A stretch of 64,000 nt of DNA from Candidatus Latescibacterota bacterium (GCA_965217585.1 OZ244561.1:2528001-2592000); one strand, 5' to 3'. Positions 781-42,914 are shown, counted from the first letter of the stretch. Numbers and translations are program-made. The notes: generated by a model not told the origin, from the sequence alone.

Positions 781-1890
781 ATGATCCATACCGCACAAGC
801 ACTTACCGAACTCGTCGAGCACGCCCTAGACTGCGAGCGCGTTGCCCTAGACACTGAATTTGTTTGGAACCGCACCTATTATCCCAAGTTAGGCGTGATC
901 CAATTGGCCCTCGCCGGCGACGACTGCCACCTAATTGACCCGGTGGCGATTGCGGATCTCTCGCCCCTTGGTGCCCTGTTAGAGCACGCGGAGGTCGAAC
1001 TGATTCTCCACGATGCCCAACAGGACCTGGCTATTCTGCGCCGGGTCACGGGTGCCTTTCCGCGCAACGTCTTCGACACCCGCTGCGCGGCCGGGCTTGC
1101 CAATATGAGTTCGACCTCTTCGCTGGCTGATCTCTTGGAGCAGACCCTCGGCGTAGTCCTCGACAAGACCGAGACGCTCACCAACTGGGTCCGCCGCCCT
1201 CTCTCCGAGGACCAGCTAGCTTATGCCATTGAGGACGTGCGCTATCTGCACGAGGCATGCAATGTGTTGCGGGCGCGCGTCGAGAAAATTGGTCGCAACA
1301 CTTGGCTGGCAGAGGAGATGACCGCGTACGACGATCCGCGGCTATACGAGGAGCGAGACCCACGCGAGCAATTCACTCGGGTCAAGGGCGCGGGCCAAGC
1401 TTCTGCGCGCGAGCTGGCCATTCTCCGCGAATTGGCCGCTTGGCGCGAAGAGGAAGCCCAGCGCTGCAACCGACCGCGCAATCACGTACTGACGGACGAA
1501 ACTCTCGTGTTACTAGCTCGGCGCAAGCCCCAATCGCCGGAGGAACTAGGCCGACTCCATGCATTCGGCAATCGCCGCTATGACCGCTACGTCCTCGAGC
1601 AGGTTCACCGCGGCTTGGCCGTCCCCAACGAGGAGTGCCCACCCCGGCCGCGCCGGCCGCACCTCGATAAGGAGGTCGTCGAGCGCAAACTCGCCCAATC
1701 CATGGATTACTTGCGCCGGCAAAGCAACGCGGCGCAGATTGACGCGCCTTTTGTCGCGGCCCGCGCCGAAGTGCGCAACCTAGTCCTCGACTCGGTCGCT
1801 GCCACGCCCGAGGATCATCGCCTCCTGCGCGGGTGGCGGCGCGATTTTATTGGCGAAGCCCTATACGGCATCGCTACTTGCCCTGAGTGA
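781..1890 (+). CDS. rnd: Ribonuclease D (DEDDy 3'-5' exonuclease + HRDC)
   Basis: ALDTEF..RTYYPKLGVIQL, LHDAQQD, FDT, NWVRRPLSEDQLAYAIEDV, HRDC LAAWREEEAQRCNRP and C-terminal LLRGWRR. Confidence 0.93.
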   Translation: MIHTAQALTELVEHALDCERVALDTEFVWNRTYYPKLGVIQLALAGDDCHLIDPVAIADLSPLGALLEHAEVELILHDAQQDLAILRRVTGAFPRNVFDTRCAAGLANMSSTSSLADLLEQTLGVVLDKTETLTNWVRRPLSEDQLAYAIEDVRYLHEACNVLRARVEKIGRNTWLAEEMTAYDDPRLYEERDPREQFTRVKGAGQASARELAILRELAAWREEEAQRCNRPRNHVLTDETLVLLARRKPQSPEELGRLHAFGNRRYDRYVLEQVHRGLAVPNEECPPRPRRPHLDKEVVERKLAQSMDYLRRQSNAAQIDAPFVAARAEVRNLVLDSVAATPEDHRLLRGWRRDFIGEALYGIATCPE

Positions 1891-4800
1891 AGCGTGCCTC
1901 ATAACTGGCCCTGAGCCGGGCTGAGCCTCGCCAGATCAGACATAGCGGCACGACCAACACCACCAGTACCGATGAAGATATTAGCCCCCCTGATGTGCCC
2001 AAGGCCAAGGTGTACCAGATGTCGCCCCGGTCTCCTTGCAACAACAACGGCAAAAACCCGGCGATCGTCGTCAGAGTGGTAATGAAAATGGGGCGCAACC
2101 GCTGGAAAGCAGCGCGAGTAACCGCGTCCTGCGGAGCCGCCGGCTGTGCTCGTAACGCTCTAGAAATATGGTGTACCAGCAAGATGGAATTGTTCACGGA
2201 GATACCCATCAAAAGCAGCAGCGAAGCATATCCACCTTGGTCGAAAGAAGCGCCCGACAAGTAAAACCCGGCACCCACCCCGATCAGGGCTAGCGGCAGG
2301 GCGAGCAACACCAGCAACGGCCAAGTCCAAGACTCAAAGAGCGCCGCCGCGATCATCCAGACTAAGACGACCGAGAGCAGCACGATGAGGGCCAGTTCTC
2401 GTTCTTCCTCTTCACTGAAAACCGACATCATATAACCCCGCGACAAACTGTATCCATAGGGTATGGGCGTGTGGTCCATTATATCCTGTACCACCATTTC
2501 TGCGTAAGAGAAATCGCCCAAGATCGTAAACCCGACCTCTTTGATGTAACGCTGATTTTCTCGCTTGATCTCAGGCCGTACATAGTGCTTTTGCAAGCGG
2601 CTGACATCGCCGATGCGGGCACCCCCTTCCGCCAATAAGGCTTGATTCAAGCGGCGCAGATCGGTTCGGCGGGCCGTTGTATCGGCAACAGCCGCCATAT
2701 ACTCCCGACGGTCCACGTACAGCTTGGCGACCGGGGCCCCACCGTCGAGCCGGGTTTGTATCTGATCGGCGACCGCAGCGTGGTCAAGGCCCAGCGGGAC
2801 GGTCTTGGCGTGGTCAATCTGGGCTAGCACCTCGTAACGAGGTGGCCCGTAAGCACGGTCGATGTGAATATCCTTGATCCGCCGTGATCGCCGATCCTGC
2901 AATCGCTCGGCGATTCCGGTGGCGATTTGGCCTACCTGCCTAAAATTGTAGCCCTTTACTTCCAGTCGCCTCGACGCGCTCAAGCCACCTCCTAGCCCTC
3001 TCCCCTCCGGTTCCAGATCCTGGCCCCATATCCGAAAGCCGACGCCGCCGATGTTGTGCCCGTAAGCCGCTAGATTGTCGTATAGCACGTAGGGAACATT
3101 CGACTTTTTGTACTCTTCCTTTAGCAAAACCTGCACAAGCCCGTACCGGCCGTAGGTCTGGGTGACGATCCCCCTGATGTACGGGGAAAACAAGAGTAGC
3201 TGCTTTTCAATGCCCTGCAACAGTCCGTCCAGTCGGCTGATGTGTGCGTTGTGCGGCATTTCGAGGAAGACGATCAGCGAAAACCCTTCGGTTACTTCTC
3301 GCAAGAGGTGTCTATACGATGACTCTTCTATCCGGTGGCCAACGTCGCGGAACAGAAAGTAGGTCGCGCCGCCCAACACACTAAAGAGCGCCGGTTTAAC
3401 CACGCCCAGTAGCGGGTTGCCCCACACCGTGTTGTAGAGCTGTGTCCCCCCATCGTAGAGCCGTCCCCAAGCGGAGTCTGATCCCTCTTCCTTTTCAGGC
3501 ACCAACACTTTTCTGCCGAATGTATCTAGCGCCGCGAGACTATCCCTATCGGCGAGCCATTGTTGGTACTCTTGACGTGTCTCAATTGCACCTGTGAGCC
3601 TCCCTTTTTCCACCAACCCCCGGCGTGTTCCCACTTCGTCTGGCAAGAGCCATAGTGGGACGCCTACCATCCACGCGACCAGCCCTAGCACCCACCCTTT
3701 GCGGCGGACGCAAAAGGTGAGAACTCTGCGGTACGCCCCATAGAGGCGGCGGTCTGCTGCTGGGGATGGCGCAACCCGGCGGACGCTTAGATAAAAAAAC
3801 GTCGGAATCAGGGTGAGGGCGAAGACCAAGGCTAGGATGAGCGTCAGGCCTAACGACACTACAAAGGGCGTGAAATGTCGCTGCAATTGGGCAGAGAGGA
3901 AAAACACCGGCAGAAAAGCCCCTAAAGTGGTTAGGTTGGAAACCACTAAGGGGTACATCACCTCGCGCAGACCCTCGGCTACGGCTTCTTTTAGATCCCC
4001 TTCCGGACCGCAGTCCTCGGCGCGGCGGTGGATGTAGTCATAGACGACGATGGCGTTGTCTATGATAATCCCAAACCCTATGGTAAAACCGGCCAGGGTA
4101 ATTAGGTTCAGTGGTAGGCCGAAGAGGAAAAACAGGCTGAACGCCCCCAGCACAGAAAGCGCGACCGAGCACAGGATCAACACTGGGGTCTGGAGCCGTT
4201 TGAATACCCCGATCAGCACTAGCGCGATACACAGGACAGAGAAGGCGGACCGGCGCAGCAAGAAGTGGAGGTCGTCCTCGATGCGAGCGCCCTCGTCGTT
4301 GAGCACGACAATCTCGACCTCCTCCGGCAACTGCGCGGCGAGCGCGGCGAGCTTGGTCCGCACCCGCCGAGAGGTGCCGATCATGTCGCTACCGGCCATC
4401 TTTTCGACCTGCACGGCAATACCGTTGCGCCCGTTGATCCGGTACAGGACCTGCGGATCGCTAGACTGGTAGCGGACGGTCGCTACATCCCCCAAGTAAA
4501 GGACGCGCCCGCCCGCCATCCGCTTGAGGGGAATCCGCCTGAGCGCGTCGAGATCCTCAACGCCTCCTTGTAGCTGGATGCGGCTCAGGGTGCTGTGCGC
4601 CTTGGTCGTCCCCAAGGAGCGGGTCTGCATACCCTGCGCCGCCAACGCCGCTCGCAGTGTCCGCAGGTCAATCCCCCAGCGCTGGGCCAAGGCGTGGTCC
4701 AACTCGATGAGGATGCCTTGCTCTCTCCCTCCTTGCACCGAGACCTCTCTGACCCCGGGTACGGACAGCAGCGGGAGCCGCACCTTGTCTTCTACGAACG

Positions 4801-5272
4801 TGCGGAGCGCGGCAGGGTCCTCGCGCCCGAGCACCTGAAAAAGGATAAAGCCGCGCAAATCGCGCAGCAGATCCGGCTCAAAGCGCCGCACCACTGGATA
4901 GGAGACGCCTGGGGGCCGCTGGCGGAAGAACGAGTGGATCTTCTCGTTGAGTTCCAATTCGGCTAGCTGCAAATCGGCCGTGCGGGCAAATTCGGCAGTG
5001 ATATAGGCACTCCCGACCGAGGTGACAGAGCGCAATTCGACCACATCTGGCACTCCCCGCACCAGCGATTCCAACGGGGCCGTGAGCCGCGATTCTATCA
5101 CGACGGCCGAGGCTCCCGGCCAAGAAAGGTTCACCGTCAGCTGGGGTGCGTCGGCTTCTTCCGTAGTGTCGATGGGTATGAGGGGAAAGCAGAGCAGGCC
5201 CATGGCCAGCACAGCCGCACTGGCAACCCCTATGGCCACGGGCCGGTCCAACAATTTGTCGGCTATCCCCAC
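1874..5272 (-). CDS. RND efflux permease (AcrB/MdtC-like) with an internal ~100-aa insertion
   Basis: DRPVA N-terminus, WPGAS..IE..LTAPLE, GIIIDNAIVV, GISVNNSILLV, RLRPIFITTLTT. Start reassigned to GTG at 5272, just after the upstream TGA (ORF track start at 5455 overlaps the upstream gene). Confidence 0.92.
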   Translation of the reverse strand: MGIADKLLDRPVAIGVASAAVLAMGLLCFPLIPIDTTEEADAPQLTVNLSWPGASAVVIESRLTAPLESLVRGVPDVVELRSVTSVGSAYITAEFARTADLQLAELELNEKIHSFFRQRPPGVSYPVVRRFEPDLLRDLRGFILFQVLGREDPAALRTFVEDKVRLPLLSVPGVREVSVQGGREQGILIELDHALAQRWGIDLRTLRAALAAQGMQTRSLGTTKAHSTLSRIQLQGGVEDLDALRRIPLKRMAGGRVLYLGDVATVRYQSSDPQVLYRINGRNGIAVQVEKMAGSDMIGTSRRVRTKLAALAAQLPEEVEIVVLNDEGARIEDDLHFLLRRSAFSVLCIALVLIGVFKRLQTPVLILCSVALSVLGAFSLFFLFGLPLNLITLAGFTIGFGIIIDNAIVVYDYIHRRAEDCGPEGDLKEAVAEGLREVMYPLVVSNLTTLGAFLPVFFLSAQLQRHFTPFVVSLGLTLILALVFALTLIPTFFYLSVRRVAPSPAADRRLYGAYRRVLTFCVRRKGWVLGLVAWMVGVPLWLLPDEVGTRRGLVEKGRLTGAIETRQEYQQWLADRDSLAALDTFGRKVLVPEKEEGSDSAWGRLYDGGTQLYNTVWGNPLLGVVKPALFSVLGGATYFLFRDVGHRIEESSYRHLLREVTEGFSLIVFLEMPHNAHISRLDGLLQGIEKQLLLFSPYIRGIVTQTYGRYGLVQVLLKEEYKKSNVPYVLYDNLAAYGHNIGGVGFRIWGQDLEPEGRGLGGGLSASRRLEVKGYNFRQVGQIATGIAERLQDRRSRRIKDIHIDRAYGPPRYEVLAQIDHAKTVPLGLDHAAVADQIQTRLDGGAPVAKLYVDRREYMAAVADTTARRTDLRRLNQALLAEGGARIGDVSRLQKHYVRPEIKRENQRYIKEVGFTILGDFSYAEMVVQDIMDHTPIPYGYSLSRGYMMSVFSEEEERELALIVLLSVVLVWMIAAALFESWTWPLLVLLALPLALIGVGAGFYLSGASFDQGGYASLLLLMGISVNNSILLVHHISRALRAQPAAPQDAVTRAAFQRLRPIFITTLTTIAGFLPLLLQGDRGDIWYTLALGTSGGLISSSVLVVLVVPLCLIWRGSARLRASYEARFTQGK

Positions 5273-5274
5273 CG

Positions 5275-8200
5275 TCAGGCTTTCTCTCGTATCACCACCG
5301 AGTAGAGGATGGGAATGACGATCAGAGTTAGCAGGGTCGCCAAGGATAGACCACCGACGATGGCCCAAGCCAGCGGGTGCCGCAACTCGGCCCCACTGCC
5401 GCTGGACAAGGCCATGGGCAGGAGGCCGCAAACCGTGGTCAGGGTGGTCATGCAAATGGGCCGGAAGCGCTTTTGTCCGGCTCCCACAATAGCGCCCCGC
5501 AGGTCGCCGTCAGAGCGGAAGCGCGTGTGGATGAAATCGACCTTGACAATCGAGTCGTTCACCACAATACCCACCAGCACAATACACCCCAACAAGGACA
5601 TGATGTTCAGGGTATTATTAGTCGCCCACAACGCGAAAACCACCCCCATGGACGCCAGCGGCACAGCCGCGACGATCACAAAGGGGACGACCAGCGATTC
5701 AAACTGGGCGGCGAGGATGCAGTACACCAAGATCACCGCCAAGGCGACCAGCACGTACAGGTTCCGGTACTGCTCCTGCATCTGTGCGTAGTGGGTTCCG
5801 ATGGCTACCCAATGCCCACTGGGAATAGTTAGGCCATCCAACAGCGCGGCAAGTTTGGTTTGGGCTTCGGCGCGATCAATGCCTTGAAGAGTAGCGGTTA
5901 TCATCGCAGTGCGGGTTTGGTCCTCGCGGTGGATTTCCTCGTAGCCTTGGCTGGGTTTTAGTCGGATGAGTTGGGAAAGGGGAACGTGGATGGTGCGGTC
6001 TTTTCTCCGCACCGGGTACTGTAGGCTCAAGATGCGCTGTGGGTCGAGCTCGTCGGAGTGCCCGGCGCGCACCCGGATGTCGATGCGATCGACAAAATCG
6101 ACGAATTGGGTTGGGGTGCTGCCTTGTACCTGTCGGTTGATGAAATCGGTGAGTTGTTCGATGCGAATGCCATAGTTTATGGCGGCATCGCGGTCGATGA
6201 CGACCTCAAAGGTCCGCTTGCCGGTTCGCAGGTCGGAAACCACGTGCGCAAAGCCGGCGGTCTGCCGCATAAAGTCTGCGATCTGTTCGCTCAGAGCCGC
6301 CAAGGTCTCTAGCTGAGGCCCGACGATCTTCACGTCGAATAGGGTCTGCTGTCTCTGAAACAACTGTTCAAAGACCGACTCTGGCTGGGCGAGCGTCAGA
6401 GTTAGCTCGCCAAAGGCCGCGAAGGCCGCTTCCAATGTTCGCTCCACCTCCGCGCTCGGCACGTCCTCGGCGAGCTCAAGGTCGAGGACCGCCTTATTCA
6501 GCCCGGGCCGATACCCCCCGGCTACGCTCTCGCGGACGATGCCCACCGATGCCAACACCGAGCGGACGCCGGCCTCTTGCCGCAGGCGGTGCTCCAGCCG
6601 GGCAACCGCCGCCGAGGTGGCCGACAAACTCGCTTCTGTAGGCAACTCCACGTGCAAGACGAGATGCCCTCGATCCACATCCGGCATAAGCTCCCGATCC
6701 AGTCGCACGGCCAGCCAGCCACTCAAGGCTAGTAACACAAACGCGGCCACCATCACCGTATAGCGGTGGCGCAGGGCACCGGCCAAGACCCGTTCATAGA
6801 GGGCAAAGAACGCGCCGAACACCTGCTGAAAAAGGTCAATGGTCCAAACCAACGGGGCCGCCAGCCGGTAGAGGGCACGGACCGGACGTCTCTTCCAGCT
6901 TCTAGAAGAGAGCATGGGCAGCAGGGTAATGGACACCAGCAGGGAAGCAGCCAGCGCCAAAGAGATGGTGACGGCCTGCTGGTAAAAGAGCGCCCCGGCC
7001 ATTCCTTTGACGTACACTAAGGGCAAAAACACGGCCATGGTGGTCAGGGTCGAGGCGGTAATGGCCAGCCCTACTTCCTCGGTGCCGCGCACGGCCGCTT
7101 CGCCGGGGGCATGGCCCAACTCGCGGTGGCGGTAGATGTTTTCCAGCACCACAATCGAGTTATCGACCAAAATCCCAATGCCCAGCGCCAGCCCGCCCAG
7201 CGACACGATGTTAAAGTGGATATCGAGGAAGTACATGCAGATGAAGGTGGTGACGATGGAAACAGGTATGGATAGGCCGACGATGAGGGGATTTTTGAAG
7301 TCTCTGAGGAAGTAGATGAGGGTGATAAAGGCGAACACGCCCCCTAGGTAGAGCGCCTCGACCACACTGTCGATGGACGCTTGGATAAACTCGGCTTGGT
7401 CAAAGACCGGTCGCACCGCAAAGTCGGGATAGTCCAGCGAGAACTGGTACAGATCGCCGTACACCTTCTTCGAGGTCTCTACCGTGTTGGCCCCGGCCTC
7501 CTTAAAAAGATACAAGGTGATGACCTCGTGGCCGTTCAAACGGGTGTACCCGCTCCGTTCCGCGTAGCCTTCCTCAATGCGAGCGACCTCCTCCAAGCGA
7601 ATCTGTTTAGGCTCCTGTCGCACGGGAATCCGGCCGATCTCCGCAAGGTTGGTAAACTCCGCCTGTATGCGCAGCGGAAACTGAGCCACGCCGTCGCGGA
7701 TGGTGCCGCCCGAATGCGTAACATTGAACTGCGCGAGACTCTGTTCCACCGCGGCAAAGCCAATGTTGTAGCGCCGACATTTCTCCACATCGAGGGATAC
7801 TTGGATTTCGCGGTCGAGACCGCCGGCCACCTGCACGTAGGCCACGCCGTCAATCTGTTCGAGGCGGCGTTTGATGACGGATTGGGCGACCTCCTTTAAC
7901 TCCATCAGGGCTTGATGGTAATCGCGCGTGGACTGGGGGTGCTCAATCCGGTCGCCGGTGACGATTAGGGTCATTACGGGTGCTGAGGAAGGGTCAAAGC
8001 GCAAGATGGTGGGGCGTCCGGCGGCTTGCGGCAGTCCGGCCCGGTCGAGACTGCTGCGGGCCTCAATGAAGCCCAAGTCCATGTCGCTGCCCCAGCGGAA
8101 CTCGACCTCGACCAACGAGAGGCCATCCTGCGAAACCGACCGCAGGCGGCGCACACTGCTGACCGAGCTGAGGGCGGCTTCAAGGGGACGAGTGACGTAT

Positions 8201-8382
8201 TCTTCTACATCGCGGGCGTTCAGGCCGAGACAGTCCGTGCGGACCACGAGCCGGGGAACGTCAATGTCGGGTAGGAAGTCCACGCTCAGGCGGAAGAGCG
8301 AATAGACCCCCAAAAGGAGCGCGGCCAGAAAGCAGACGGTGGTCGCCACGGGCCGCTGGACGGCAAAGCGGACGAGGCGCAC
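5275..8382 (-). CDS. RND efflux permease (AcrB/MdtB-like)
   Basis: AVQRPVAT, GILVDNSIVVLENI, LAAQFESL, GIVVNDSIVKVD, RFRPICMTTLTT. Confidence 0.95.
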   Translation of the reverse strand: MRLVRFAVQRPVATTVCFLAALLLGVYSLFRLSVDFLPDIDVPRLVVRTDCLGLNARDVEEYVTRPLEAALSSVSSVRRLRSVSQDGLSLVEVEFRWGSDMDLGFIEARSSLDRAGLPQAAGRPTILRFDPSSAPVMTLIVTGDRIEHPQSTRDYHQALMELKEVAQSVIKRRLEQIDGVAYVQVAGGLDREIQVSLDVEKCRRYNIGFAAVEQSLAQFNVTHSGGTIRDGVAQFPLRIQAEFTNLAEIGRIPVRQEPKQIRLEEVARIEEGYAERSGYTRLNGHEVITLYLFKEAGANTVETSKKVYGDLYQFSLDYPDFAVRPVFDQAEFIQASIDSVVEALYLGGVFAFITLIYFLRDFKNPLIVGLSIPVSIVTTFICMYFLDIHFNIVSLGGLALGIGILVDNSIVVLENIYRHRELGHAPGEAAVRGTEEVGLAITASTLTTMAVFLPLVYVKGMAGALFYQQAVTISLALAASLLVSITLLPMLSSRSWKRRPVRALYRLAAPLVWTIDLFQQVFGAFFALYERVLAGALRHRYTVMVAAFVLLALSGWLAVRLDRELMPDVDRGHLVLHVELPTEASLSATSAAVARLEHRLRQEAGVRSVLASVGIVRESVAGGYRPGLNKAVLDLELAEDVPSAEVERTLEAAFAAFGELTLTLAQPESVFEQLFQRQQTLFDVKIVGPQLETLAALSEQIADFMRQTAGFAHVVSDLRTGKRTFEVVIDRDAAINYGIRIEQLTDFINRQVQGSTPTQFVDFVDRIDIRVRAGHSDELDPQRILSLQYPVRRKDRTIHVPLSQLIRLKPSQGYEEIHREDQTRTAMITATLQGIDRAEAQTKLAALLDGLTIPSGHWVAIGTHYAQMQEQYRNLYVLVALAVILVYCILAAQFESLVVPFVIVAAVPLASMGVVFALWATNNTLNIMSLLGCIVLVGIVVNDSIVKVDFIHTRFRSDGDLRGAIVGAGQKRFRPICMTTLTTVCGLLPMALSSGSGAELRHPLAWAIVGGLSLATLLTLIVIPILYSVVIREKA

Positions 8383-8391
8383 GTGGCGGCC

Positions 8392-9552
8392 CTAGCGCTG
8401 AACGACCACGACCTTGGCGTCGTGGGCCAGATTGAAATGTCCGGATACAATCAGTTCCTCGCCTTCGCTAAGCCCTTCTTCGATCTCAATAAAGTCGTCG
8501 TTTTCGAGGCCGGTCCGCACATAGCGCCACTTGGCCTGACCAGCTTCATGCACGAAGACCAGCGCGCGGTCATCGCGGATGAGCATGGCGTCGCGCGGGA
8601 TGAGCAGCCGCTGTTTAAAAACTCTGGTTTCCACGGCGACTTGGGCGAACATGCCCGGCTTGATGCGGTGGTCGGGATTGTCGATTTCAATGTGAATACT
8701 ACAGGTCCCGCTTTCGGCATCAACTACCGGGCTGATGGCCTTGATGATGCCAGCAACCTGCTCGCCGGGAAAGGCGTGGGGCCGGATGGAGACTTGGGCA
8801 CCGAGTTGCACCAGCCGTAATTCGCTCTCCAAAATGGGGACATCGAGCCGCAGCGGGTCCAGCGCCACCAACCGCATCAAGGTGCGGCCTTGCGCGACCA
8901 TGCCACCCGGGCTGACCTCCACCTGGGTGATGTAGGCGTCAAACGGTGCCTTGATGACCGTGTGTTCTAAGTCTAACTCAGCCCTTCTCAACTCTAGCCG
9001 GTTACTGGTCAGCCCAGTCGTGCTGGCGATCCACTGCTTGGGCGAGTGATCGGTAAACAGGGCGAGGGCATCGCGGTCGTTTACTTCGGCGGTGTCGGCA
9101 ATGGCTTCGACGTCGTCTTGCAGGAGACGGCCCCGCTTCATCTGGCTGCTCGACAGGGCAATCGCGGCATATTCGCGCAACGAGCGAGTCATCTGGTCCT
9201 TGGCCTGTAGATAGGCAAGGTGGTAGGATTCGGCATCGATTTGCAGAATGGTGTCGCCTTGGCTGACGAAGTGGCCTTCCTCGGCATGCAGGCTGCTCAC
9301 CGGCCCCGACACTTGGGCGGTGAGGTCGGTCTCAACCCAAGCCTTAAAGACACCACTGGCCAAAATCTGCTGCACGAAGTCGCGCTTCTGCACCGTTTGC
9401 GTGGCCACGGGCGTGGCTGGCGGTTCAAGTTCGGGCAATGTGGTAAGGGATGGACTGTCGTCAGTTGAGGATGGAGCGGATTCCCCCACAATCGCATACG
9501 CTAATGCACCCAGTCCGAACAACGTTAGGGCGATGTAGAGGATTCGTTTCAT
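8392..9552 (-). CDS. RND efflux periplasmic adaptor (MFP)
   Basis: N-terminal anchor, lipoyl halves (AQVSGPV..EGHFVSQGD; IKAPFDA), ISPVVDAESGT, IKPGMFA, VRTGL...EGLSEGE; directly upstream of the RND pair. Confidence 0.93.
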   Translation of the reverse strand: MKRILYIALTLFGLGALAYAIVGESAPSSTDDSPSLTTLPELEPPATPVATQTVQKRDFVQQILASGVFKAWVETDLTAQVSGPVSSLHAEEGHFVSQGDTILQIDAESYHLAYLQAKDQMTRSLREYAAIALSSSQMKRGRLLQDDVEAIADTAEVNDRDALALFTDHSPKQWIASTTGLTSNRLELRRAELDLEHTVIKAPFDAYITQVEVSPGGMVAQGRTLMRLVALDPLRLDVPILESELRLVQLGAQVSIRPHAFPGEQVAGIIKAISPVVDAESGTCSIHIEIDNPDHRIKPGMFAQVAVETRVFKQRLLIPRDAMLIRDDRALVFVHEAGQAKWRYVRTGLENDDFIEIEEGLSEGEELIVSGHFNLAHDAKVVVVQR

Positions 9553-9628
9553 GGGTTGTGCGGGACGAGTGAGAGGGAGACCATTTCTGCATTAGATACA
9601 AATATAAAGGATATAGGCGCAGTGACTA

Positions 9629-10633
9629 TTATCCACCCGTCACCTCGGCCAAAGCCGCCAAGGCAGTCCGCTCCCGTCCTGCGAGGGCACACAGCCGCGA
9701 CTGAATGCGCGGCAGTACCCTTGTTGCATCCTTGACCGTCCCTTTGAAACACAAATTCTTCACCACAAACCAGCCCTGGGAAATGGACTCAAATTCCCGG
9801 CTGAGGTCACCTAGACGCGGAAGTTGGCAGACCTGAGCAGCATGGTGAAGAAAGCGGCCATGACCTTCGCGGAGCAAGGCGATCTCTAGAAGCAACTCAG
9901 CGCACCGTCCCAAGCGCGCTTTGAGGAACGGCTTTTCGTACTCCGCCCATGCTCCGGCATCCTCGGCTAGTTGCTCAACGCCCTTCAGTCCCACGGCGAG
10001 ATTCGCTTGATCGCTAGACGCGGACATACTGCGCAGGTTGCGTTGCAGAAGGGCGCGGGCGGCTTCGGGCCGCAGGGTAAGCCGTCTCCTCGGCACCTCC
10101 GGCCAGAACCAGTTGTATCGGTCTTGACTCTCTCCGGGAATCGCGCTCACATCCCAACTGGCAAGGAACAATTCGAGCGGGATACTCCGCGCTGAAGGCT
10201 GCCACGGCGAGGGATCGATGAGGTGAACGGTAGCGGCCTCGTCGTCGTACCCAGCGGCGATATACTGGTGGTCTGAATGGCGCAGACGGGGATAGAGGCC
10301 GGCTTGGGCCAGCGGGAACACGTCCAAACTAATGGCCACCGGGGTATCCGCGTCTATTAGCTTTTTCACTTCATCCCACGCGCTTTGCCCATCGTTCGCG
10401 TTGCGGTTGAACAGCGCAATGCCAAAGGCTTTGAGCGTATCGGGCAGGGGCACGACCCGTCCTTGGATAGTGAACCGTTCGCCTTCCTCTCGGCAATAGA
10501 TAAAGTCCCAATGGGAAAAACAGGGCACCGATGGTTCGCATTCATAGAAGCGCAACAGGCTATCCAACACCACATAGACGCAGTTGTAGCGTCGGTGAGT
10601 GCAAAAAGGGATGCCATCAATGTGTTTTTTCAT
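9629..10633 (-). CDS. BtrH-N / C39-like papain-fold cysteine peptidase
   Basis: N-terminal Cys (RYNCVY), helix/strand VKKLIDADTPVAISLDVF, then His and Asp in HSDHQYIAAGYD..VHLIDP, followed by a helical C-terminal domain typical of BtrH-like proteins. Confidence 0.72.
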   Translation of the reverse strand: MKKHIDGIPFCTHRRYNCVYVVLDSLLRFYECEPSVPCFSHWDFIYCREEGERFTIQGRVVPLPDTLKAFGIALFNRNANDGQSAWDEVKKLIDADTPVAISLDVFPLAQAGLYPRLRHSDHQYIAAGYDDEAATVHLIDPSPWQPSARSIPLELFLASWDVSAIPGESQDRYNWFWPEVPRRRLTLRPEAARALLQRNLRSMSASSDQANLAVGLKGVEQLAEDAGAWAEYEKPFLKARLGRCAELLLEIALLREGHGRFLHHAAQVCQLPRLGDLSREFESISQGWFVVKNLCFKGTVKDATRVLPRIQSRLCALAGRERTALAALAEVTGG

Positions 10634-10650
10634 ACAGATGTCTCTAAGGG

Positions 10651-11916
10651 CAGGGCAATCGCATTATAACTGTCCATGTGCCAATAGGTTCGCCAAATAT
10701 TTGTGGTCCCACCCGGCCTTGAGCCGTTTGGTTTGCATGCCGGCTTTGGTCGTTTTGTCTTGCTGGAGTAGATTGAGCGCGATGTGGCGTATAACGGCCA
10801 TATTTTCGGGGCCATGCCCCCGGCGTATGCGGGACTGATCTTCGTTGAAGACGACATCGAGGATCCAGTGTAATGAATTTTCAATGGCCCAAGGACCGCG
10901 CACGGCCTGTCCCAATCGTTGGGCGTTGTTGTCCAGGGTGGAGATATAGTAGCGTCGTTCGACCGAAACGCTATCGCCGCGGTGCCGGGTGGCCTCGACC
11001 ATACCGAACAGGCGTAAGCCCGGCCAGTGAGCATGATCGGCAAAAGCCTCAATCTGGTTGGTGGTCCAGTACTGCCGCGTTTCTCGACGCCCGTGGTTTT
11101 CGTCCTGAGTAAACCAATAATCTACGGTGGGGTCGGCGTGGAGTTTGGAGTCGGAACGGTCAAAGAGTTGTTGAAGATGGGCGTGGAGTTTGGGTTGATT
11201 CTCCTTGACGGCCAGCACGTAGTCGGCCTCTTGTTCGACGACCTGTTCGGCCGTGCTTTTATGACACCCCAAGGCATCGGGGGTGACCAGGCAGCCTTTG
11301 AGGTCTAAAACACGTAATAATTCGGGGATGAGCGCAATTTCTTCGAGGGCTTCTTCACCATGGAATTGCCCCAAGACCAGCCGATTTTTTACCGCCCAAG
11401 CATGCACCCTGTGGATGGCGGCTTGGCCCGAGTCTGTATCGTAGGAGCGGCGCAGTGTCTTGCCATCCAGCGGCACGATCTCGCCCTCGTCGGCCAACAG
11501 GGGCGTCAGCGATTGCACCCAAGCGGTAAAACAGTCTTGGAAATGCCAAGGCGAAATACGGGCCAACACACGACCGAAGGTATCATGCGAGGGGATGCCG
11601 TTCGGCACGGCTAGAAAGGTCTTAAGCCAGTCGGCTTTAGCCCGGCCAAATTCGGCGATCGCCACCCAGTTGTCGGCCCCACAAATGGAGCCGCACACCG
11701 CAATCATGAGAATATCAATCAAGCGATGCGCCCGACAACGCTCCATACGCGGGTCGGGGATATCGGCCAAATAATCCAGCAACCCCGAAGACGATGAGGA
11801 CATGAAGAAACACTCCAGGCAAGAGGGAAATGGGAGGACATGAACCTAAGCTCCATAGAACGGCCAAAAGTAACATAACCGCATGGTAAAAATCAACTTA
11901 TAATGCGATTGCCCTG
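10651..11916 (-). mobile_element. ISAs1-family insertion sequence
   Basis: Perfect 19-bp TIRs CAGGGCAATCGCATTATAA (10651-10669) / TTATAATGCGATTGCCCTG (11898-11916); no target duplication visible. Confidence 0.92.
10664..11803 (-). CDS. ISAs1-family (H-repeat) transposase
   Basis: DPR..RAHRL, GIPSHDTFGRV, DGKTLRRS, YVLAVKENQ, HGRRETR, WAIENSLHWILDVVFNEDQSRIR. Confidence 0.95.
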   Translation of the reverse strand: MSSSSSGLLDYLADIPDPRMERCRAHRLIDILMIAVCGSICGADNWVAIAEFGRAKADWLKTFLAVPNGIPSHDTFGRVLARISPWHFQDCFTAWVQSLTPLLADEGEIVPLDGKTLRRSYDTDSGQAAIHRVHAWAVKNRLVLGQFHGEEALEEIALIPELLRVLDLKGCLVTPDALGCHKSTAEQVVEQEADYVLAVKENQPKLHAHLQQLFDRSDSKLHADPTVDYWFTQDENHGRRETRQYWTTNQIEAFADHAHWPGLRLFGMVEATRHRGDSVSVERRYYISTLDNNAQRLGQAVRGPWAIENSLHWILDVVFNEDQSRIRRGHGPENMAVIRHIALNLLQQDKTTKAGMQTKRLKAGWDHKYLANLLAHGQL

Positions 11917-12159
11917 CTAGTCTAGCTTATAGAAGGGCGCACATTACTCTCTAAAGGGGTCATCAGATATGTGATGACCTTCTACTACCTCTAAAAGCGA
12001 CGCGTCTGTTAATTGGGCGAGCGGTGAATCCTCGAACCCCTCCGTGCTTATCCCGAGGGGAGGGAAATGTCTGAACACTAGTTTGGTAAAAAAGATAACG
12101 GAAAACTGTTCCTTTCCATATATGGGATAATGGCATTGGAGAATAGTATTACGCTCGTT

Positions 12160-13404
12160 CTGATTCCCTGACACTTTTGAAAAAAGGGCTGCTGCCCATA
12201 GATTACGGCCCTCTTTTAACCGACCCCGATCAAAGGAGTGCCTTATGAGCAGCAGCGAACAGGTATATACTCGATTGATGACCACCTTGCAAGCGATAGT
12301 GCCGGTATCGAATCGAAAACAGTTGGCTAACTGGGCTTGGATCGCGGTGGCTATGTTCCAAGCTAAGTCGATTGCCTTGAGCCAGATCGCTGTTTTTCTG
12401 CCGGGCTCGGCCAAAGCCGAGTCGCGGGTGATGCGGTTGCGCCGTTGGCTGTCGAATCGGCAGTGTTCGGTGTGGGCACTGTATCGCCCGCTGCTTATGC
12501 ATGTGTTGGCTCCGTTTAAGAACCGAGCGGTTGATGTGATCTTGGATGGGACGTTGGTGTTCGGCAATCGCATGCAGATTTTTCGCCTGTCGTTGGTACA
12601 TAAGAATCGAGCCATTCCTCTGGTATGGAAGGTCATCCCCGGTAAAGGCAACACGCGCGTGTCGCAACTAGAAGGGATGGTGACCCAAGCCGCTGAAGTG
12701 CTTGACGGGTTGGTTGCGTCGGTGACCTTGCTGGCCGATCGGGGCTTCCGCGATCATCAGTGGGCGGCGTTATGTGTGCAACTCAACTGGCATTACGTCC
12801 TTCGCCTACCGGCCAACACGTGGGTCAACAGGCCCGATGGGACCGCCGGGCGCATCGATCAGTTGGCTATACCCAAAGGCCAGCGCCGCTTTTATCCACA
12901 GATTACACTCACGAAAGAGGCCACGCTGACCTGTTCGCTATCGGTGGGCTGGACCCAACCGACGACCAAGCAACCCGCCGAGTGGATCGCCGTCATCTCC
13001 GATCAACCCGCCGGCCCCGCCCGCCGGCGTGCCTATAGCAAGCGGATGCACATTGAGCAGAGTTTCAAAGAAGATAAATCCGGCGGCTTCGATCTGGATC
13101 ATACCCGCTTGCTCAATCCCCAACGCCTTGAACGCCTGCTGCTGGCGGTGGCGTTGGCCACCTTATGGGCGCACGAGATAGGCGAATAGGTCCTCCGGGG
13201 AGGCCCCGCCCGCCGACAGACTATCGATGCGGGCACCCGGCGCGAACTGAGTGTGTTTCAATTGGGCCTCCGATGGCTCAAACGGTGTATCGCCCTCCAA
13301 CTCCAGCGCTTGCCAGCGTTCAAAGGACGGTTGGCACCCACGGGAATAAAAACTGTTGTTAAAAATAAGACGACCAGCAGAAAGTAAAAGTGTCAGGGAA
13401 TCAG
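12160..13404 (+). mobile_element. IS4-family insertion sequence
   Basis: Perfect 19-bp TIRs CTGATTCCCTGACACTTTT (12160-12178) / AAAAGTGTCAGGGAATCAG (13386-13404) and a 9-bp TSD ACGCTCGTT (12151-12159, 13405-13413). Confidence 0.95.
12245..13387 (+). pseudogene. IS4-family DDE transposase with internal TAG at 13187-13189
   Basis: VILDGT, RAIPLVW, LLADRGF, YSKRMHIEQSFKEDKSGGFDL; the transposase-like frame continues past the stop (..RELSVFQLGLRWL..) to the TAA at the right TIR. Confidence 0.8.
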
Positions 13405-13954
13405 ACGCTCGTTAACAAGCAGGATTAGGGGAGTCTGTTTGAGAAATTCATCTAGTGAAGTGTTGTCTTCTTTTATTATCCCAAACTGATAATCTAACCG
13501 AAAGGCGCGTTTGAACTGCCAAAGCCTTTCCAGAGGAATATCCTTGGAAAGGGCGTATATAGGAAATTCATTGGGATCTGTCAGATTGTCACGTATATGC
13601 TGTAAACCATTCAACACCAACTCAAGACAAGGCTGACACGATTTCGGGTCAAATAATAGCACTAAACCACCCTTCTTCTTGGAAAAATCAGTATATACTG
13701 TATCACCACGATCTGTCTGTATAGAGACTACAGGGAAGTGTTGTCCAATCTTCTTAGTCGAGTTGTAAATGTTGAGCAAAAATGTCTTATTTGTCTGATT
13801 GTTTGCAAGATCAAATAAATAGAGCTTGCCGATCCAAGCCACGGATACCGTTATGCCGATAAGTAATAATACGCTCGTTATACCCAATAACTGGGCAGAG
13901 GTAAGACGTTTCATAGATTGTGTCTCTGTTGTACTCTACATTTACCTCAATAAC

Positions 13955-15252
13955 TTGAATTCGACAGGTAGGTTGATATTTAGGCTCGAACAGGCATCGG
14001 AGTCTCCCTATTTTGGGATAGCTTGATTCACCGCCATGGATCATCTACCCCAGGGAAACTCCGATGCTGAACCTGACTCGCTTGCCTGTGAACCTTCGTT
14101 ATTTTTTGCGTGGGACTCAACATTTTTTTCGTCATCGCCATCATCTGGTGTTCTGTTGGAGTATGACGCTGTTGTTAATCTATCAAGATAAAGCGACGCT
14201 GTGTGGTTTAGCCCGCTTGGGGCCTAACCATATAGCGGAATGGCACTTACGTCGCTTGCTGAGTGCGACCTACTGGAGTTGGCGGTTGCTGTTGGGGTAC
14301 TTGGTTGATGCGGTGATCGCCGGGCTGCCACCGGCGGAAGACGGTCGGGTGTTGGTGATCGTCGACGGGACCTACAAAGCCAAGGTGGCCAAGAAACATC
14401 CGTTGGTGCGCAAAGCCCGCGCCGATGGCTATAGTCCCTTTCTGTGGGGGTTTGAAGTGATCCTGGTCATGCTGCAGTGGGGCAATTATCGAATCCCTAT
14501 CGATTTCGAGTTGGTTCGGCGTAAAGAAGACCCGGCCTATCAGAAGCCCAATGTGTTGTTTCGTCAGATGCTGACCGCCTTGGTACCACCGGCTTGGGCC
14601 CAGCAAGTGATCGTGGTCGCCGATGCCGGGTTTCCCGCTAAAGAAACGCTGCACTTGATCCAGCAACGAGGCTTCTTTTTCGTCATGAGTCTGCCCCGCA
14701 CCTGGAAGTTTGAAGACGGCCATACGCTCAAAGATTGGGTCCATCATACGCGCCATACCTGTTATCGAAAAATCTGGTTTCGTCCGCACGGCTCCCGTCG
14801 GCGGGTCTATTGGGTCTACCGCGGTCGTAAACGCCTGCGACACATCGGAGATGTCACGTTGGTCTTGAGCAAGAAACGGCGCAACGATTCGCCGAAACAA
14901 ACCAAAATCCTGGTGACCAATCTACCGGACGTGACCGCAGGCCAACTCGTCGTGTTGTATACCCGCCGCTGGCACGTGGAACTGCTCATCAAAGAATTGA
15001 AAGGGGCCACCGGATTAGGACAAGCCCAGGTGACCAAGCAGACCCAACGAGTCGAACGCTCCGTCGCGTTGTCCGTTATGGCCTACTTGGTTTTGATCCA
15101 TTTTCGGCAGCGGGATATTCCCCACCAAGGACCGTGGAGTGCGTTTACCCTCAAGCGAAATTTTGCTTGGGAGTGTGCGCGAAAACAGATTGAACATAAC
15201 CAAAAACGAACCTACACAAAGGCCGCCTAAGACAACTACCTGTCGAATTCAA
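13955..15252 (+). mobile_element. IS4/IS701-like insertion sequence
   Basis: 17-bp TIRs TTGAATTCGACAGGTAG (13955-13971) / CTACCTGTCGAATTCAA (15236-15252) flanked by the direct repeat CTCAATAA (13946-13953, 15253-15260); exact end uncertain by 1 bp. Confidence 0.9.
14064..15230 (+). CDS. DDE transposase (IS4/IS701-like)
   Basis: VIVDGT, VVADAGF, ILVTN, YTRRWHVELLIKELKG DDE motifs; lies within TIRs. Confidence 0.9.
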   Translation: MLNLTRLPVNLRYFLRGTQHFFRHRHHLVFCWSMTLLLIYQDKATLCGLARLGPNHIAEWHLRRLLSATYWSWRLLLGYLVDAVIAGLPPAEDGRVLVIVDGTYKAKVAKKHPLVRKARADGYSPFLWGFEVILVMLQWGNYRIPIDFELVRRKEDPAYQKPNVLFRQMLTALVPPAWAQQVIVVADAGFPAKETLHLIQQRGFFFVMSLPRTWKFEDGHTLKDWVHHTRHTCYRKIWFRPHGSRRRVYWVYRGRKRLRHIGDVTLVLSKKRRNDSPKQTKILVTNLPDVTAGQLVVLYTRRWHVELLIKELKGATGLGQAQVTKQTQRVERSVALSVMAYLVLIHFRQRDIPHQGPWSAFTLKRNFAWECARKQIEHNQKRTYTKAA

Positions 15253-15262
15253 CTCAATAAGG

Positions 15263-15300
15263 TTCAGCGGACTCGATTAAAGAAAATCGAGTCCGCTGAA
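15263..15300. terminator. Perfect 16-bp stem-loop downstream of the small peptide gene (terminator or mRNA-stabilising element)
   Basis: TTCAGCGGACTCGATT-aaagaa-AATCGAGTCCGCTGAA; no classical U-tract after it on either strand. Confidence 0.6.
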
Positions 15301-15360
15301 AAAAGACAGGGACTAATCTCAAAAATAAATTAAGATGCCTTTAAAAAGGATGAAGGCCCA

Positions 15361-15585
15361 TCAGTCGCAGTCTACTTTGGTCCACGATCCGCTGTCCCGA
15401 TCCCCTGGAGTGCAATTATGCTTGTTCCCAGAGAAACACTCCCAATTCCAAGCATACCATATTGTAAGACATCCGTTTTCGTAGTCAGAATCAAAATCAT
15501 CTCCTCCTACCCAACGACCTTCGGGACTGTAGGTACAAATGAGATCCGTACGCCTGTACGGGGTCTTCTTGGTAAGATTAACCAT
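15361..15585 (-). CDS. 74-aa Cys/Trp-rich small peptide, candidate precursor
   Basis: AAAGGA RBS 7 nt before ATG; co-oriented between the propeller and redoxin genes; followed by a hairpin; 5 Cys, 5 Trp, GG at residues 27-28. Confidence 0.68.
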   Translation of the reverse strand: MVNLTKKTPYRRTDLICTYSPEGRWVGGDDFDSDYENGCLTIWYAWNWECFSGNKHNCTPGDRDSGSWTKVDCD

Positions 15586-15635
15586 AACGCATTCCTTTCG
15601 TTTGAGGGATTGAGGTGTGTTCCCTGTCTTATAAT

Positions 15636-17006
15636 TTATCTTTTAACGAACAGCTCATATATGTCCACTGTGCCATTGGACTTCTCCGCTGCTTCTACTG
15701 GTGGTGGCCTATAAACATAAATCTGGCTCTTCCAAGATGCTATTCTTCCGCCTATCCCGCTTGCTTTAGCTTTAACTACAGTTCCCTGAGAATCTTTTTT
15801 GATACCTTCAAGAGATTGATATGCAGCACCATTGAGCGAGTATGCCTCAATCAATTCCGACGAATCCGAAGTCACCAAATCATAAAGCGTCCATTCATTT
15901 GGTGACTGTGGTCTCTCACGAGAAGTGTGTGAGATTAATAGGTAACGATCATCTATCAGGACCATGCTAGTCGCCCGATTGATTCCACTCATTATTAGGG
16001 AGAAATCGCCCCGATCTGTTGATCCACAGTCTAGGCCGTGGTACTCCCTCGATAAGAATTTGAAATCTGGCTGCTGCTTCTCAAGGGTGAAGACGTTATA
16101 ACTAGGCACAAGAGCACCGAATTGCCGCAGGAGATCACCGGTGGAGGCATCGATCTCTTTTACCATGTAGTCATTGGCCTCCAGATAATACAGACGATTT
16201 TGCATAGTATTATAGCGTAGTTGAGCAGGGTTACGTAGGTAGCATGAAATGATCTGATCTGTCTTACTAGAGAGAGGTATGGTATATTCTACTGCCCTAT
16301 TGAGGCCAGTAATTTTCTGTATCTGTATGATAGATCCACCATGTTTATTCTCCATAACGATCAGTGCATCATCTCGGTTGATCAACAAGCCTCTACATCC
16401 AACCCAGCTCATCTTATCATCAAGGTACTGACCTTGTCGATTATAATGCAATAATTGGCCGTATATAGGATCCATGATATAGACATCTCCCTTGGAATCC
16501 ATAGCCATCGCCTCAGCACCCCCATATTCCCCAGGCCCCTTCCCAGTGCGTCCGAAAGACCGGATATATTTGCCATCGTTCAGGCTGAACTCGTGCGCCC
16601 TACGAGATATCCGATCTGTAAGGAGTAAGGAACTATCAGGAGTAATGCCCATCCAGCGTATCCTGCCAATACCCGGAACTGCCTTATCAAATACCAATTC
16701 GACTGTACGCTTGAGTTCAAGGCCCATCTCCCCGGCATATTCTACAGGCACTTTGGGAATACTCGACTCGTCTAGCTGCTCCTGCGCCGCAACAGACTTG
16801 ACCCCGCCATAGCCTGCTATCACCCACGTAATGAGCATGGCCCTGAAGAAGATCAAGACGTTATTAAAGGTGAAAGTACTGGAGATCATGAACCGACTCT
16901 TTCTCAATGTTACAGGTGCTCGCGGAATCCAAACCGCTATCGGCAGGAATACCCTTCGCAGATTAAAGATAGCCACCGATTCGGTGTGCTTATATAGAGA
17001 GAACAT
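15636..17006 (-). CDS. 6-bladed beta-propeller protein (NHL/DUF5128-like), probably exported
   Basis: AAGGAGG RBS before ATG 17006; hydrophobic segment ending VAA-QEQ; hallmark GKYIRSFGRTGKGPGEY and DSKGDVYIMD..YNRQGQYL blades. Confidence 0.82.
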   Translation of the reverse strand: MFSLYKHTESVAIFNLRRVFLPIAVWIPRAPVTLRKSRFMISSTFTFNNVLIFFRAMLITWVIAGYGGVKSVAAQEQLDESSIPKVPVEYAGEMGLELKRTVELVFDKAVPGIGRIRWMGITPDSSLLLTDRISRRAHEFSLNDGKYIRSFGRTGKGPGEYGGAEAMAMDSKGDVYIMDPIYGQLLHYNRQGQYLDDKMSWVGCRGLLINRDDALIVMENKHGGSIIQIQKITGLNRAVEYTIPLSSKTDQIISCYLRNPAQLRYNTMQNRLYYLEANDYMVKEIDASTGDLLRQFGALVPSYNVFTLEKQQPDFKFLSREYHGLDCGSTDRGDFSLIMSGINRATSMVLIDDRYLLISHTSRERPQSPNEWTLYDLVTSDSSELIEAYSLNGAAYQSLEGIKKDSQGTVVKAKASGIGGRIASWKSQIYVYRPPPVEAAEKSNGTVDIYELFVKR

Positions 17007-17061
17007 CTTATTTCCTCCTTCAGAAAAGCTGATTTTGCGACCCAAGCGTCCCGGAGCCTCC

Positions 17062-17706
17062 CTACTCCAGCGACACAATTCCTTCTCTGATCGCGTATTT
17101 GGTCAACTCAGCCACCCCGTTCATGCCGAGCTTCTTCATGAGATTCTGGCGATGATTGCCCACAGTTTTCTCGCTCACTACGAGTTGATCGGCTATTTGC
17201 GGGGTCGTTTTTCCCTCGGCGATAAGCTGCAGCACCTCTCGCTCGCGGGATGTCAGGAGGGGCGAGGCGGCACCATCGGCGAGGCGTTGCGCGTAATCGG
17301 CGATGAGAGGGTCAATCAATTGCGGGCTCACGTACTTGCGGCCGGCCTGTACCTCCCGGATCGCTTCCACCACCTCACGGGCCGCCGCCTCTTTCAGCAC
17401 ATAGCCCAAAGCCCCCACCTGCAACATGGCGGCCACAAAGCGCTGGTCCGAGCGCGACGACAGCGCCACCACCTTCACGCTCGGCTCCCTATCCCGTATC
17501 TGCCGAGTCGCCTCAATGCCATTCAAGTCGGGCAGGCCAATATCCATGACCACAATGTGGGGTAGGTGCTTGAAGACCAAGGCGACGGCTGTACGGCCGG
17601 CCCCGGCCTCGGCGACTACCTCAATATCGCTTTCTTTCTCACACAGCGAACACACCCCTTGGCGCGTAACTTCGTGATCGTCCACAAGCAAGACCCGCGT
17701 ACTCAT
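17062..17706 (-). CDS. NarL/FixJ-family response regulator (REC + LuxR HTH)
   Basis: VLLVDDH, VVMDIGLPDLNG, GYVLK, LTSREREVLQLIAEGKTT..IA..L.VSEKTV..HRQNLMKKL; no adjacent kinase. Confidence 0.95.
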   Translation of the reverse strand: MSTRVLLVDDHEVTRQGVCSLCEKESDIEVVAEAGAGRTAVALVFKHLPHIVVMDIGLPDLNGIEATRQIRDREPSVKVVALSSRSDQRFVAAMLQVGALGYVLKEAAAREVVEAIREVQAGRKYVSPQLIDPLIADYAQRLADGAASPLLTSREREVLQLIAEGKTTPQIADQLVVSEKTVGNHRQNLMKKLGMNGVAELTKYAIREGIVSLE

Positions 17707-42886: not shown

Positions 42887-42914
42887 TTTTTCGCGAAAGA
42901 TAGGGGGGAGTCAC

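Follow-up and report, generated by a model that had tools for sequence, protein, structure and literature searches.

The peptide maturation clusters CLI_3235, CcpM and SacP23 of Firmicutes comprise the precursor TIGR04065, TIGR04066, the radical S-adenosylmethionine (SAM) enzyme TIGR04068, a protein that resembles an acyl carrier protein (ACP; TIGR04069), a subtilase and an ATP-binding cassette (ABC) exporter. In the available part of PMC10731318, genes for an ABC exporter, TIGR04066, an ACP-like protein and a subtilase surround an active peptide with a predicted leader of 19 amino acids (aa), and cleavage by the subtilase is proposed by analogy for SacP23. In this study, we describe a locus in a 64,000-nucleotide (nt) stretch of DNA from Candidatus Latescibacterota bacterium (GCA_965217585.1, OZ244561.1:2528001-2592000), which is referred to as the window and in which positions are counted from the first nucleotide. 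The locus encodes a small cysteine-rich peptide, a beta-propeller, a redoxin, a protein of the BtrH family and a resistance-nodulation-division (RND) pump, and it is interrupted by three insertion sequences (IS). We are almost certain that it is the decaying remnant of a 13-gene accessory cluster located between rnd and mscS. On balance, we favor the reading that this cluster was a chassis of the SacP23/CLI_3235 type without the radical SAM enzyme and that it worked by the mechanism proposed below.

The cluster that is intact in relatives shares with the Firmicutes systems an ABC exporter, a subtilase, a TIGR04066-like domain and a carrier protein, all of which are deleted in the window, and the leaders are alike in length and shape (M-x-x-L-x-K-K to A-Y). 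However, the operon of G022, which is fully assigned, contains no radical SAM enzyme (TIGR04068); here and below, genomes are labeled G, loci L and sequencing runs X, G000 is the genome that holds the window (94.6% complete) and G022 is its nearest relative. In addition, the protease and the DUF1611 domain are fused here, the cores are acidic and predicted to form disulfide sheets, and a propeller, a CxxC redoxin, a rhodanese, an AziU2-like/BtrH pair and twin RND permeases are added. A search of 7 peptides at E 10 returned no NCBIfam match, the precursor model TIGR04065 included, and the leader alignment to an annotated member is weak (P 0.051). Lacking both a match to the precursor model and a radical SAM enzyme, the intact cluster resembles the CLI_3235/SacP23 systems in its working but is not a member of them.

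The available part of PMC12865890 describes CtaG, BtrH and AsbE as papain-like ligases with a Cys-His-Asp triad that accept their acyl groups from carrier proteins; it describes AziU2/U3 as structurally similar and aziridine-forming. The accessible text of PMC12559475 concurs on AziU2/U3, and that of PMC2922099 places the BtrH family among transacylase-like enzymes. The protein of our locus resembles CtaG/BtrH/AsbE and CcbD in its full-length two-part fold (template modeling score, TM, ~0.6), its Cys-His-Asp triad and the carrier gene that adjoins it in relatives. In contrast, the examples in the same portion of PMC12865890 act in non-ribosomal pathways, and "RiPP" (a peptide made by ribosomes and modified after translation) is not mentioned in the paper, whereas the enzyme here is encoded beside a ribosomal precursor and with a partner subunit. 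The likeness to AziU3/AziU2 (Azi29/Azi28; Streptomyces sahachiroi, PDB 7WUW and 8GS1) is that homologues of both subunits are encoded together in relatives. The difference is that no sulfotransferase or non-ribosomal peptide synthetase was seen in the mapped loci, and no sulfotransferase was seen in the G022 operon.

Loci of the NVEALA or BF3164 type in Bacteroidota combine a 6-bladed propeller, a small Cys-rich peptide, a thioredoxin and RND proteins. What our locus has in common with them, as they are generally described, is a DUF5128/NHL propeller whose gene neighbors encode a redoxin, an RND pump and a small peptide rich in Cys; the peptides here, however, lack a signal peptide and begin with a leader of the protease type. 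The link to NVEALA, which a preliminary description of the window had drawn, was not found in Pfam, where none of 21 peptides matched the family at E 1. QhpE/QhpF and MauD/MauE serve the maturation of amine dehydrogenase small subunits. Our loci share with these a QhpE-like cytoplasmic subtilase, an ABC exporter, a redoxin and at times MauE, in the neighborhood of a propeller and a small Cys-rich protein, but no cofactor-forming oxidase or radical SAM enzyme was seen here, and the cores are hypervariable. The architecture as a whole is undescribed in the literature searched, which was largely without subscription papers and supplements, and for this phylum the available part of PMC12993501 reports only antiSMASH classes.

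Five genes lost at the ISAs1-type element

In IS-free relatives within Ca. Latescibacterota, the gene order of the window is found with five additional genes at the point where the window has an ISAs1-type element (the family name is that of the preliminary description; Pfam gives DDE_Tnp_1_assoc and DDE_Tnp_1). The deleted block encodes an ABC exporter, a membrane rhodanese, a fusion of a subtilase with DUF1611 (S8-DUF1611, TIGR04066-like), an ACP and an AziU2-like subunit. G022 is collinear with the window, with 91-99% nucleotide identity on each side of a 5.2-kb gap, and the deletion junctions lie at 5433 and ~10590 in the coordinates of locus L016. A target duplication of 9-10 bp flanks eight of the eight other close copies of the element in the genome (six ISAs1-like copies of 73% identity were left out of this count), whereas the window copy has none. 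Moreover, in run X5, which belongs to another study, the ISAs1-type element is located at the identical point on the BtrH side and the two later IS are absent; its element-redoxin junction is 121 nt deeper into the redoxin gene than that of the window. Because X5 shares the loss without the later IS, the deletion is not an assembly error and is older than the other insertions. The features of the locus are as follows.

17062..17706, minus strand: NarL/LuxR-type response regulator (Pfam Response_reg and GerE)
16863..16946, minus strand: 5' remnant of a GNAT acetyltransferase gene, reading into the propeller frame (tblastn 61% over 28 aa to an open reading frame (ORF) of G009; Acetyltransf_1)
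15636..16889, minus strand: 6-bladed beta-propeller of the NHL/DUF5128 type; N-terminal segment hydrophobic; 417 aa when counted from the aligned Met (longest ORF begins at 17078; Pfam DUF5128, E 3.5e-8)
15361..15585, minus strand: predicted precursor peptide, 74 aa, with a 19-aa cationic leader and an acidic core
15263..15300, minus strand: stem-loop of 16 bp, 3' of the peptide gene, without a U-run
13954..15253, plus strand: DDE insertion sequence, intergenic, with a 7-bp target duplication (the genome has 10 copies; not present in run X5)
13405..13914, minus strand: 5' part of the redoxin gene, 170 codons, membrane-anchored CQPC thioredoxin-like (ResA/TlpA-type), 97% identical to the intact G022 gene
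12160..13404, plus strand: DDE insertion sequence within the redoxin gene, with a 9-bp target duplication (absent in run X5)
11944..12159, minus strand: 3' part of the redoxin gene, severed by the IS (238 codons before the split)
10651..11916, minus strand: ISAs1-type element without a target duplication, marking the ~5.2-kb deletion (Pfam DDE_Tnp_1_assoc and DDE_Tnp_1)
10664-11803, minus strand: transposase ORF of the ISAs1-type element, translating on the minus strand only
10630..10650, minus strand: end of the deleted AziU2-like gene, final codons with the stop, which overlaps the start of BtrH (junction comparison with L016)
9629..10633, minus strand: BtrH/AziU3/CtaG-fold protein with Cys18-His122-Asp140 (Pfam BtrH_N and DUF4872)
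8392..9552, minus strand: RND periplasmic adaptor, HlyD-type (TIGR01730 above cut-off)
5275..8382, minus strand: RND permease 1 (RND1; Pfam ACR_tran)
1874..5281, minus strand: RND permease 2 (RND2; Pfam ACR_tran), start uncertain, longest ORF from 5455
781..1890, plus strand: RNase D-like gene (rnd), one border of the insertion site
19579-20829: mscS gene, the other border of the insertion site

The preliminary description had removed the three IS in silico and had read the remaining eight co-oriented minus-strand genes as a complete system. The genes are where it placed them, and the three IS are also present, two of them with target duplications. The removal does yield the eight genes; however, because the ISAs1-type element replaced ~5.2 kb and five genes, it does not rebuild the original locus. 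Two statements arose because of this deletion. That no maturation enzyme is present is right for the damaged window copy and wrong for intact clusters, and export by RND rather than ABC is contradicted by an ABC exporter in 11 of the 11 other pump loci that bear the peptide. A multi-gene deletion can thus go unseen behind an IS that lacks a target duplication, and in silico removal of such an element can yield a false "novel" architecture. Attention shifts from the broken allele to the intact clusters of G022, G013, G014, G030 and G004.

The five deleted genes gave no blastn match elsewhere in G000, and only ABC paralogues appeared among the 40 best tblastx matches listed. The DUF1611 part of the cluster protein, which is present in 87 of 168 phylum genomes, has no match in G000, where the only DUF1611 gene is a stand-alone frame of 334 aa, and the profile of the AziU2-like protein (207 aa) also has no match there. 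The GNAT gene, which is intact in G005, G009 and G014, is reduced to 28 codons in the window. In relatives, a PAS-HisKA_3 kinase is encoded upstream of the regulator (kinase domains in L023), and a tblastn search of G000 for this cognate kinase found no match at E 1e-15. With the protease, the carrier, the partner subunit and the ABC exporter gone, with a split redoxin gene and with a peptide that lacks a signal sequence, the window copy very probably cannot mature or export a product, and the strain is very probably a non-producer.

The intact cluster in related genomes

The RND2 orthologous group occurs in 18 of 168 phylum genomes. Nineteen RND2 loci other than that of the window were mapped, 18 from one search and one from another, and three of the loci end at contig edges. 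A BtrH search matched 16 of 61 related genomes. A propeller is encoded in 16 of them, S8-DUF1611 and ACP in 14, an ABC exporter in 12 and the peptide in 11. All 11 peptide-bearing pump loci have the propeller, ABC exporter, S8-DUF1611, ACP, adaptor and RND1, and the window is the only one of 12 such loci without ABC, S8 and ACP. In G164, the same cluster genes occur in a reshuffled order. In a quick tree, 15 of 16 S8-DUF1611 enzymes from propeller/RND loci fall on one branch (Shimodaira-Hasegawa-like approximate likelihood ratio test, SH-aLRT, 100). These neighborhoods support the view that the intact cluster genes form one conserved unit. The refuting outcome that the preliminary description had set out, two blocks from different loci joined by the ISAs1, is contradicted by the collinear blocks of the IS-free relatives.

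Across 31 genomes of the genus, the interval between rnd and mscS holds a cluster that is intact over its sequenced extent in 3, a decayed cluster in 6 (including that of the window), a regulator fragment in 1, nothing in 20 and a rearrangement in 1. The middle genes are lost and the propeller and pump kept at four loci (G159, G025, G007b and, as fragments, G027). Between G013 and G022, identity is 32% for the peptide, 40% for the propeller and 50% for the redoxin, compared with 88-95% for the other genes. Because the divergence is confined to these three genes, the AT-rich block is taken to be exchanged as a cassette. The AT-richness of this core in the window was also seen correctly in the preliminary description: without its IS, the core has a GC content of 44.2% compared with a genome mean of 59.5%, and only 7 of 3036 windows of equal size are as low. 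A scan of metagenomes with the BtrH alignment gave one locus from 163 candidate stretches. Small shares or none were seen in 16 of 23 sequencing runs, and the RNA run X12 covered solely IS pieces and one regulator piece; neither result has a bearing on expression or habitat.

Several variant loci were seen. L055:8195-14384 (G009) is a variant cluster with two MauE genes and a pump reduced to an RND2 remnant. In it, the AziU2-like/BtrH pair is replaced by a glycosyltransferase and a divergent protein resembling BtrH. L036:4748-9592, the second locus of G013 (also found in G002, L020), combines S8-DUF1611, ACP, AziU2-like and BtrH genes with two CAAX-protease genes and a nearly cysteine-free 120-aa precursor, whose leader resembles that of the cluster peptide. 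L054:7647-14557, on a Bacillus mycoides plasmid (NZ_CP035996.1), encodes an ABC exporter, an ACP, an S8-DUF1611 fusion, a DUF692 enzyme and two 44-aa peptides that both have a similar leader, and one further protein is BtrH-like by eye, with no Pfam match; judged by its gene content, L054 is the same chassis with a different tailoring enzyme. L042:26-10615 (G019) holds in one locus a radical SAM-like ORF (by eye), a divergent S8-DUF1611, an AziU2-like/BtrH pair and a 246-aa protein with a twin-arginine-like start. In genus g11 (L087-L090, L095, L099, L100), two to four related propeller genes ~1.4 kb apart form tandem arrays; these contain no cassette genes, and the leader pattern caught no peptide in them.

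Peptide, enzymes and proposed mechanism

In the window peptide, the leader ends at Tyr19, the core has Trp25 and Cys39, Cys50, Cys58 and Cys73, and no signal peptide is present. The peptide profile matches 19 proteins after clustering at 90%, sequences that fall into 25 clusters at 50% identity, and 11 genomes among the 168 of the phylum. Among 38 peptides, M1, L4, Y19 and C58 are invariant and W25 is found in 37; the leader has 19 aa in 33 and a median charge of +4, the core is acidic in 37, and the number of core cysteines, mostly four, is even in 33. This pattern supports the identification of the peptide as a precursor with a conserved leader and a hypervariable core. Similar leaders stand before unrelated cores beside the same enzyme (L019/L036 and L030/L051), and a similar leader also occurs in an annotated CLI_3235 precursor and in the Bacillus mycoides DUF692 cluster. 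The peptides could be assigned to no meaningful family in Pfam or NCBIfam, none of 12 members inspected from 10 clusters is named, and the ESM Atlas had no usable match. In the structural model (mean predicted local distance difference test, pLDDT, 71), the leader is disordered and a three-stranded sheet is present; a search with this model against 48,161 chains was uninformative (best Z 3.6, none at or above 5). From the topology of the sheet and from two members without the outer pair, we infer that the disulfides would be C39-C73 and C50-C58.

The S8-DUF1611 fusion retains the subtilase motifs. Its NCBIfam matches, QhpE (E 1e-45) and TIGR04066 (E 5e-34), are both below the cut-off, and the match of TIGR04066 to the G022 fusion extends over the full length at 118 bits compared with a cut-off of 200 bits. 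The ABC exporter of the cluster has no peptidase domain. By analogy with SacP23, leader cleavage is better assigned to the deleted subtilase than to BtrH. The redoxin has no Pfam family; a profile of 14 sequences matches thioredoxin-like/ResA structures (best E 7e-10), and C93, P95 and C96 of its CQPC motif are invariant, which supports its identification as a membrane-anchored ResA/TlpA-type CxxC protein, in agreement with the thioredoxin fold that had been proposed. Nineteen OEP domain matches occur in G000, none of them within the cluster.

The BtrH protein matches BtrH_N and DUF4872 above the cut-off, and its match to Peptidase_C39_2 is marginal (24.3 bits compared with a cut-off of 24, over 65 residues). 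All of the 11 sequences compared keep C18, H122 and D140. The model (pLDDT 85) aligns along its full length with AziU3 (TM 0.72), CcbD (0.61) and CtaG (0.59-0.60), with values of 0.56-0.61 over CtaG and CcbD together, whereas C39-type peptidases align to part of it only (TM 0.34 or less). Identity to AziU3 is ~17%, and the relatives were found by profile and fold alone, as phmmer with a single sequence found no PDB relative. The assignment of BtrH as the leader-cleaving C39 peptidase, made in the preliminary description, is therefore not supported: its whole fold fits AziU3/CtaG/CcbD, and a subtilase is encoded in the deleted block. The fold model suggests that BtrH is a probable carrier-protein-dependent enzyme. 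The AziU2-like product has no Pfam or NCBIfam family and matches AziU2/Azi28 (E 4e-19). Its gene directly precedes 22 of 25 near-full BtrH genes, although some of these loci were found with the AziU2-like query, and the two genes overlap. The ACP of relatives keeps the serine of its DSI motif, and its gene is adjacent to the pair. The DarH in the available part of PMC3949708 is a different one.

The following mechanism is proposed for the intact cluster. The regulator would turn the operon on, and the cytoplasmic subtilase-DUF1611/TIGR04066-like fusion would cut the 19-aa leader after Tyr19. The BtrH/CtaG-fold enzyme and its AziU2-like partner may then acylate an amine of the core with a group taken from the carrier protein, by way of a Cys18 intermediate, which is the least certain step. 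The protease-free ABC transporter would bring the peptide to the periplasm, where the CQPC redoxin and the membrane rhodanese would form two disulfides in the three-stranded sheet, and the adaptor and twin RND permeases, with a TolC encoded elsewhere, would export the product. The propeller may bind the product as a chaperone, receptor or immunity factor. Peptide cleavage, ABC export and disulfide folding are together quite likely to have taken place in the intact cluster, and the chance that the peptide is acylated appears somewhat short of even. Only tentatively do we propose a new class of ribosomal lipopeptides, in which a thiotemplated papain-like ligase of the BtrH/CtaG fold and an AziU2-like partner acylate a core freed by a protease from a dedicated carrier protein, export takes two steps (by ABC and, once the disulfides are folded in the periplasm, by twin RND), and a swappable propeller-peptide-redoxin block sets the specificity.

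If this class exists, strains that keep the propeller and pump but not the production genes would be immune or listening non-producers. If the acylation is correct, a class of ligases described in non-ribosomal biosynthesis would act on ribosomal peptides as well, for which at least 25 diverse cores occur in nature. Our comparison links the little-studied TIGR04066/carrier-protein genes to a candidate carrier-dependent enzyme, and the question of why an ACP is encoded in such peptide clusters becomes testable.

Alternative explanations and neighboring features

The locus may be a remnant as above, but of a cluster in which the ACP, the AziU2-like subunit and BtrH formed a separate small-molecule module, acting in acyl transfer or in a ring closure like that of AziU3/U2, with the peptide only cleaved and disulfide-folded. 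We consider this rather unlikely: the pair lies between the ACP and the pump in a co-oriented operon at 9 of 11 peptide-bearing loci, it accompanies S8-DUF1611 and ACP beside the unrelated precursors with a similar leader, and the nucleophilic cysteine is kept. However, in G009 and G014b glycosyltransferases and a divergent BtrH-like protein replace the pair, and several other findings that favor such a module also weigh against the chassis reading. The cluster encodes no acyl-activating enzyme that would point to the acyl donor or to the cargo of the carrier. The top fold match, AziU3/U2, is an aziridine-forming enzyme that the available part of PMC12865890 calls functionally unrelated to CtaG. 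The pair was found without the peptide and without an S8-DUF1611 or ACP match in the fetched DNA at five of five extra loci (L047-L050, L052), and, as a further point against the chassis reading, G108 and G109 have BtrH without the AziU2-like partner. Other points against that reading concern the propeller, whose homologues form tandem arrays without the cassette or a detected peptide at 13 of 15 further loci (of the remaining two, one is a decayed copy and one a fragment at the end of a contig). Peptide-propeller co-variation is not significant when RND1 is controlled (r 0.03, p 0.42) or after post-hoc re-pairing (r 0.26, p 0.07). The peptide and propeller profiles were partly built from loci that were later counted, so the counts are not independent, and because the genomes are kin, locus counts show linkage and not independent origins. 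Finally, the ratios of nonsynonymous to synonymous substitution rates against G022 (0.09-0.13 for the pump and BtrH, 0.24 for the propeller, 0.85 for the peptide) mostly predate the deletion where they are low, are no proof of present function and cannot date selection.

Most membrane-active bacteriocins are unlike the acidic cores found in 37 of 38 peptides, which would suit a mature peptide that is not secreted but stays in the periplasm, where it would serve the propeller as a small subunit or ligand; its maturation would resemble that of the small subunits of amine dehydrogenases, and the RND pump would act on a different substrate. The best NCBIfam match of the protease (QhpE), the MauE genes of G009, the near-constant Trp25 and the exchange of propeller, peptide and redoxin as a block in G013 point the same way. 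We nevertheless regard this explanation as improbable, given hypervariable cores in 25 clusters, a peptide-propeller co-variation that is not significant, and mapped propeller/RND loci in which no radical SAM enzyme, flavin monooxygenase or di-heme enzyme was seen. That the eight genes are already complete, with BtrH cleaving the peptide and RND replacing ABC, is very improbable, although BtrH has a papain-type triad and its marginal Peptidase_C39_2 match, and the frames of the peptide, propeller, BtrH and pump are intact in the window. The window alone among the 12 peptide-bearing pump loci lacks ABC, S8 and ACP; moreover, the deletion ends at an IS that has no target duplication, an insertion splits the redoxin gene, and the site is decayed in six genomes. 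The missing duplication and the GC step between the blocks could also suggest that the ISAs1-type element fused two unrelated loci by accident, but G022, which is free of IS, and another 10 peptide-bearing loci, drawn from three genera, also have the two blocks joined, in G022 with the same GC step, and such a fusion is hardly credible. The chassis reading thus remains the one that we prefer.

The ribosome-binding site and 3' hairpin of the peptide gene, both noted in the preliminary description, are present as an AAGGA site upstream and a 16-bp stem (z -7.1, with 0 of 200 shuffles equally stable) that has no U-run behind it. The stem probably stabilizes the transcript, and a hairpin with z of -3 or lower occurs at 9 of 13 peptide genes. 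Scans for promoters (13 compared with 9.3 +/- 3.4) and terminators (22 compared with 17.2 +/- 5.5) stayed at chance level. Elsewhere in the window, 38322-45623 and 59688-63964 contain long ORFs (632-958 aa) with no Pfam match at E 1e-8 or with a short sugar-binding domain only. Between the cluster and mscS, positions 18096-19525 contain DUF433, DUF5615 and Uma2 genes and an 85-aa ORF, and such small genes at the rnd-mscS site vary in presence across the genus. Upstream of the regulator gene, positions 17936-17959 hold a 24-nt near-copy of the regulator coding sequence at 17273-17296, which is probably the relic of a second regulator copy.

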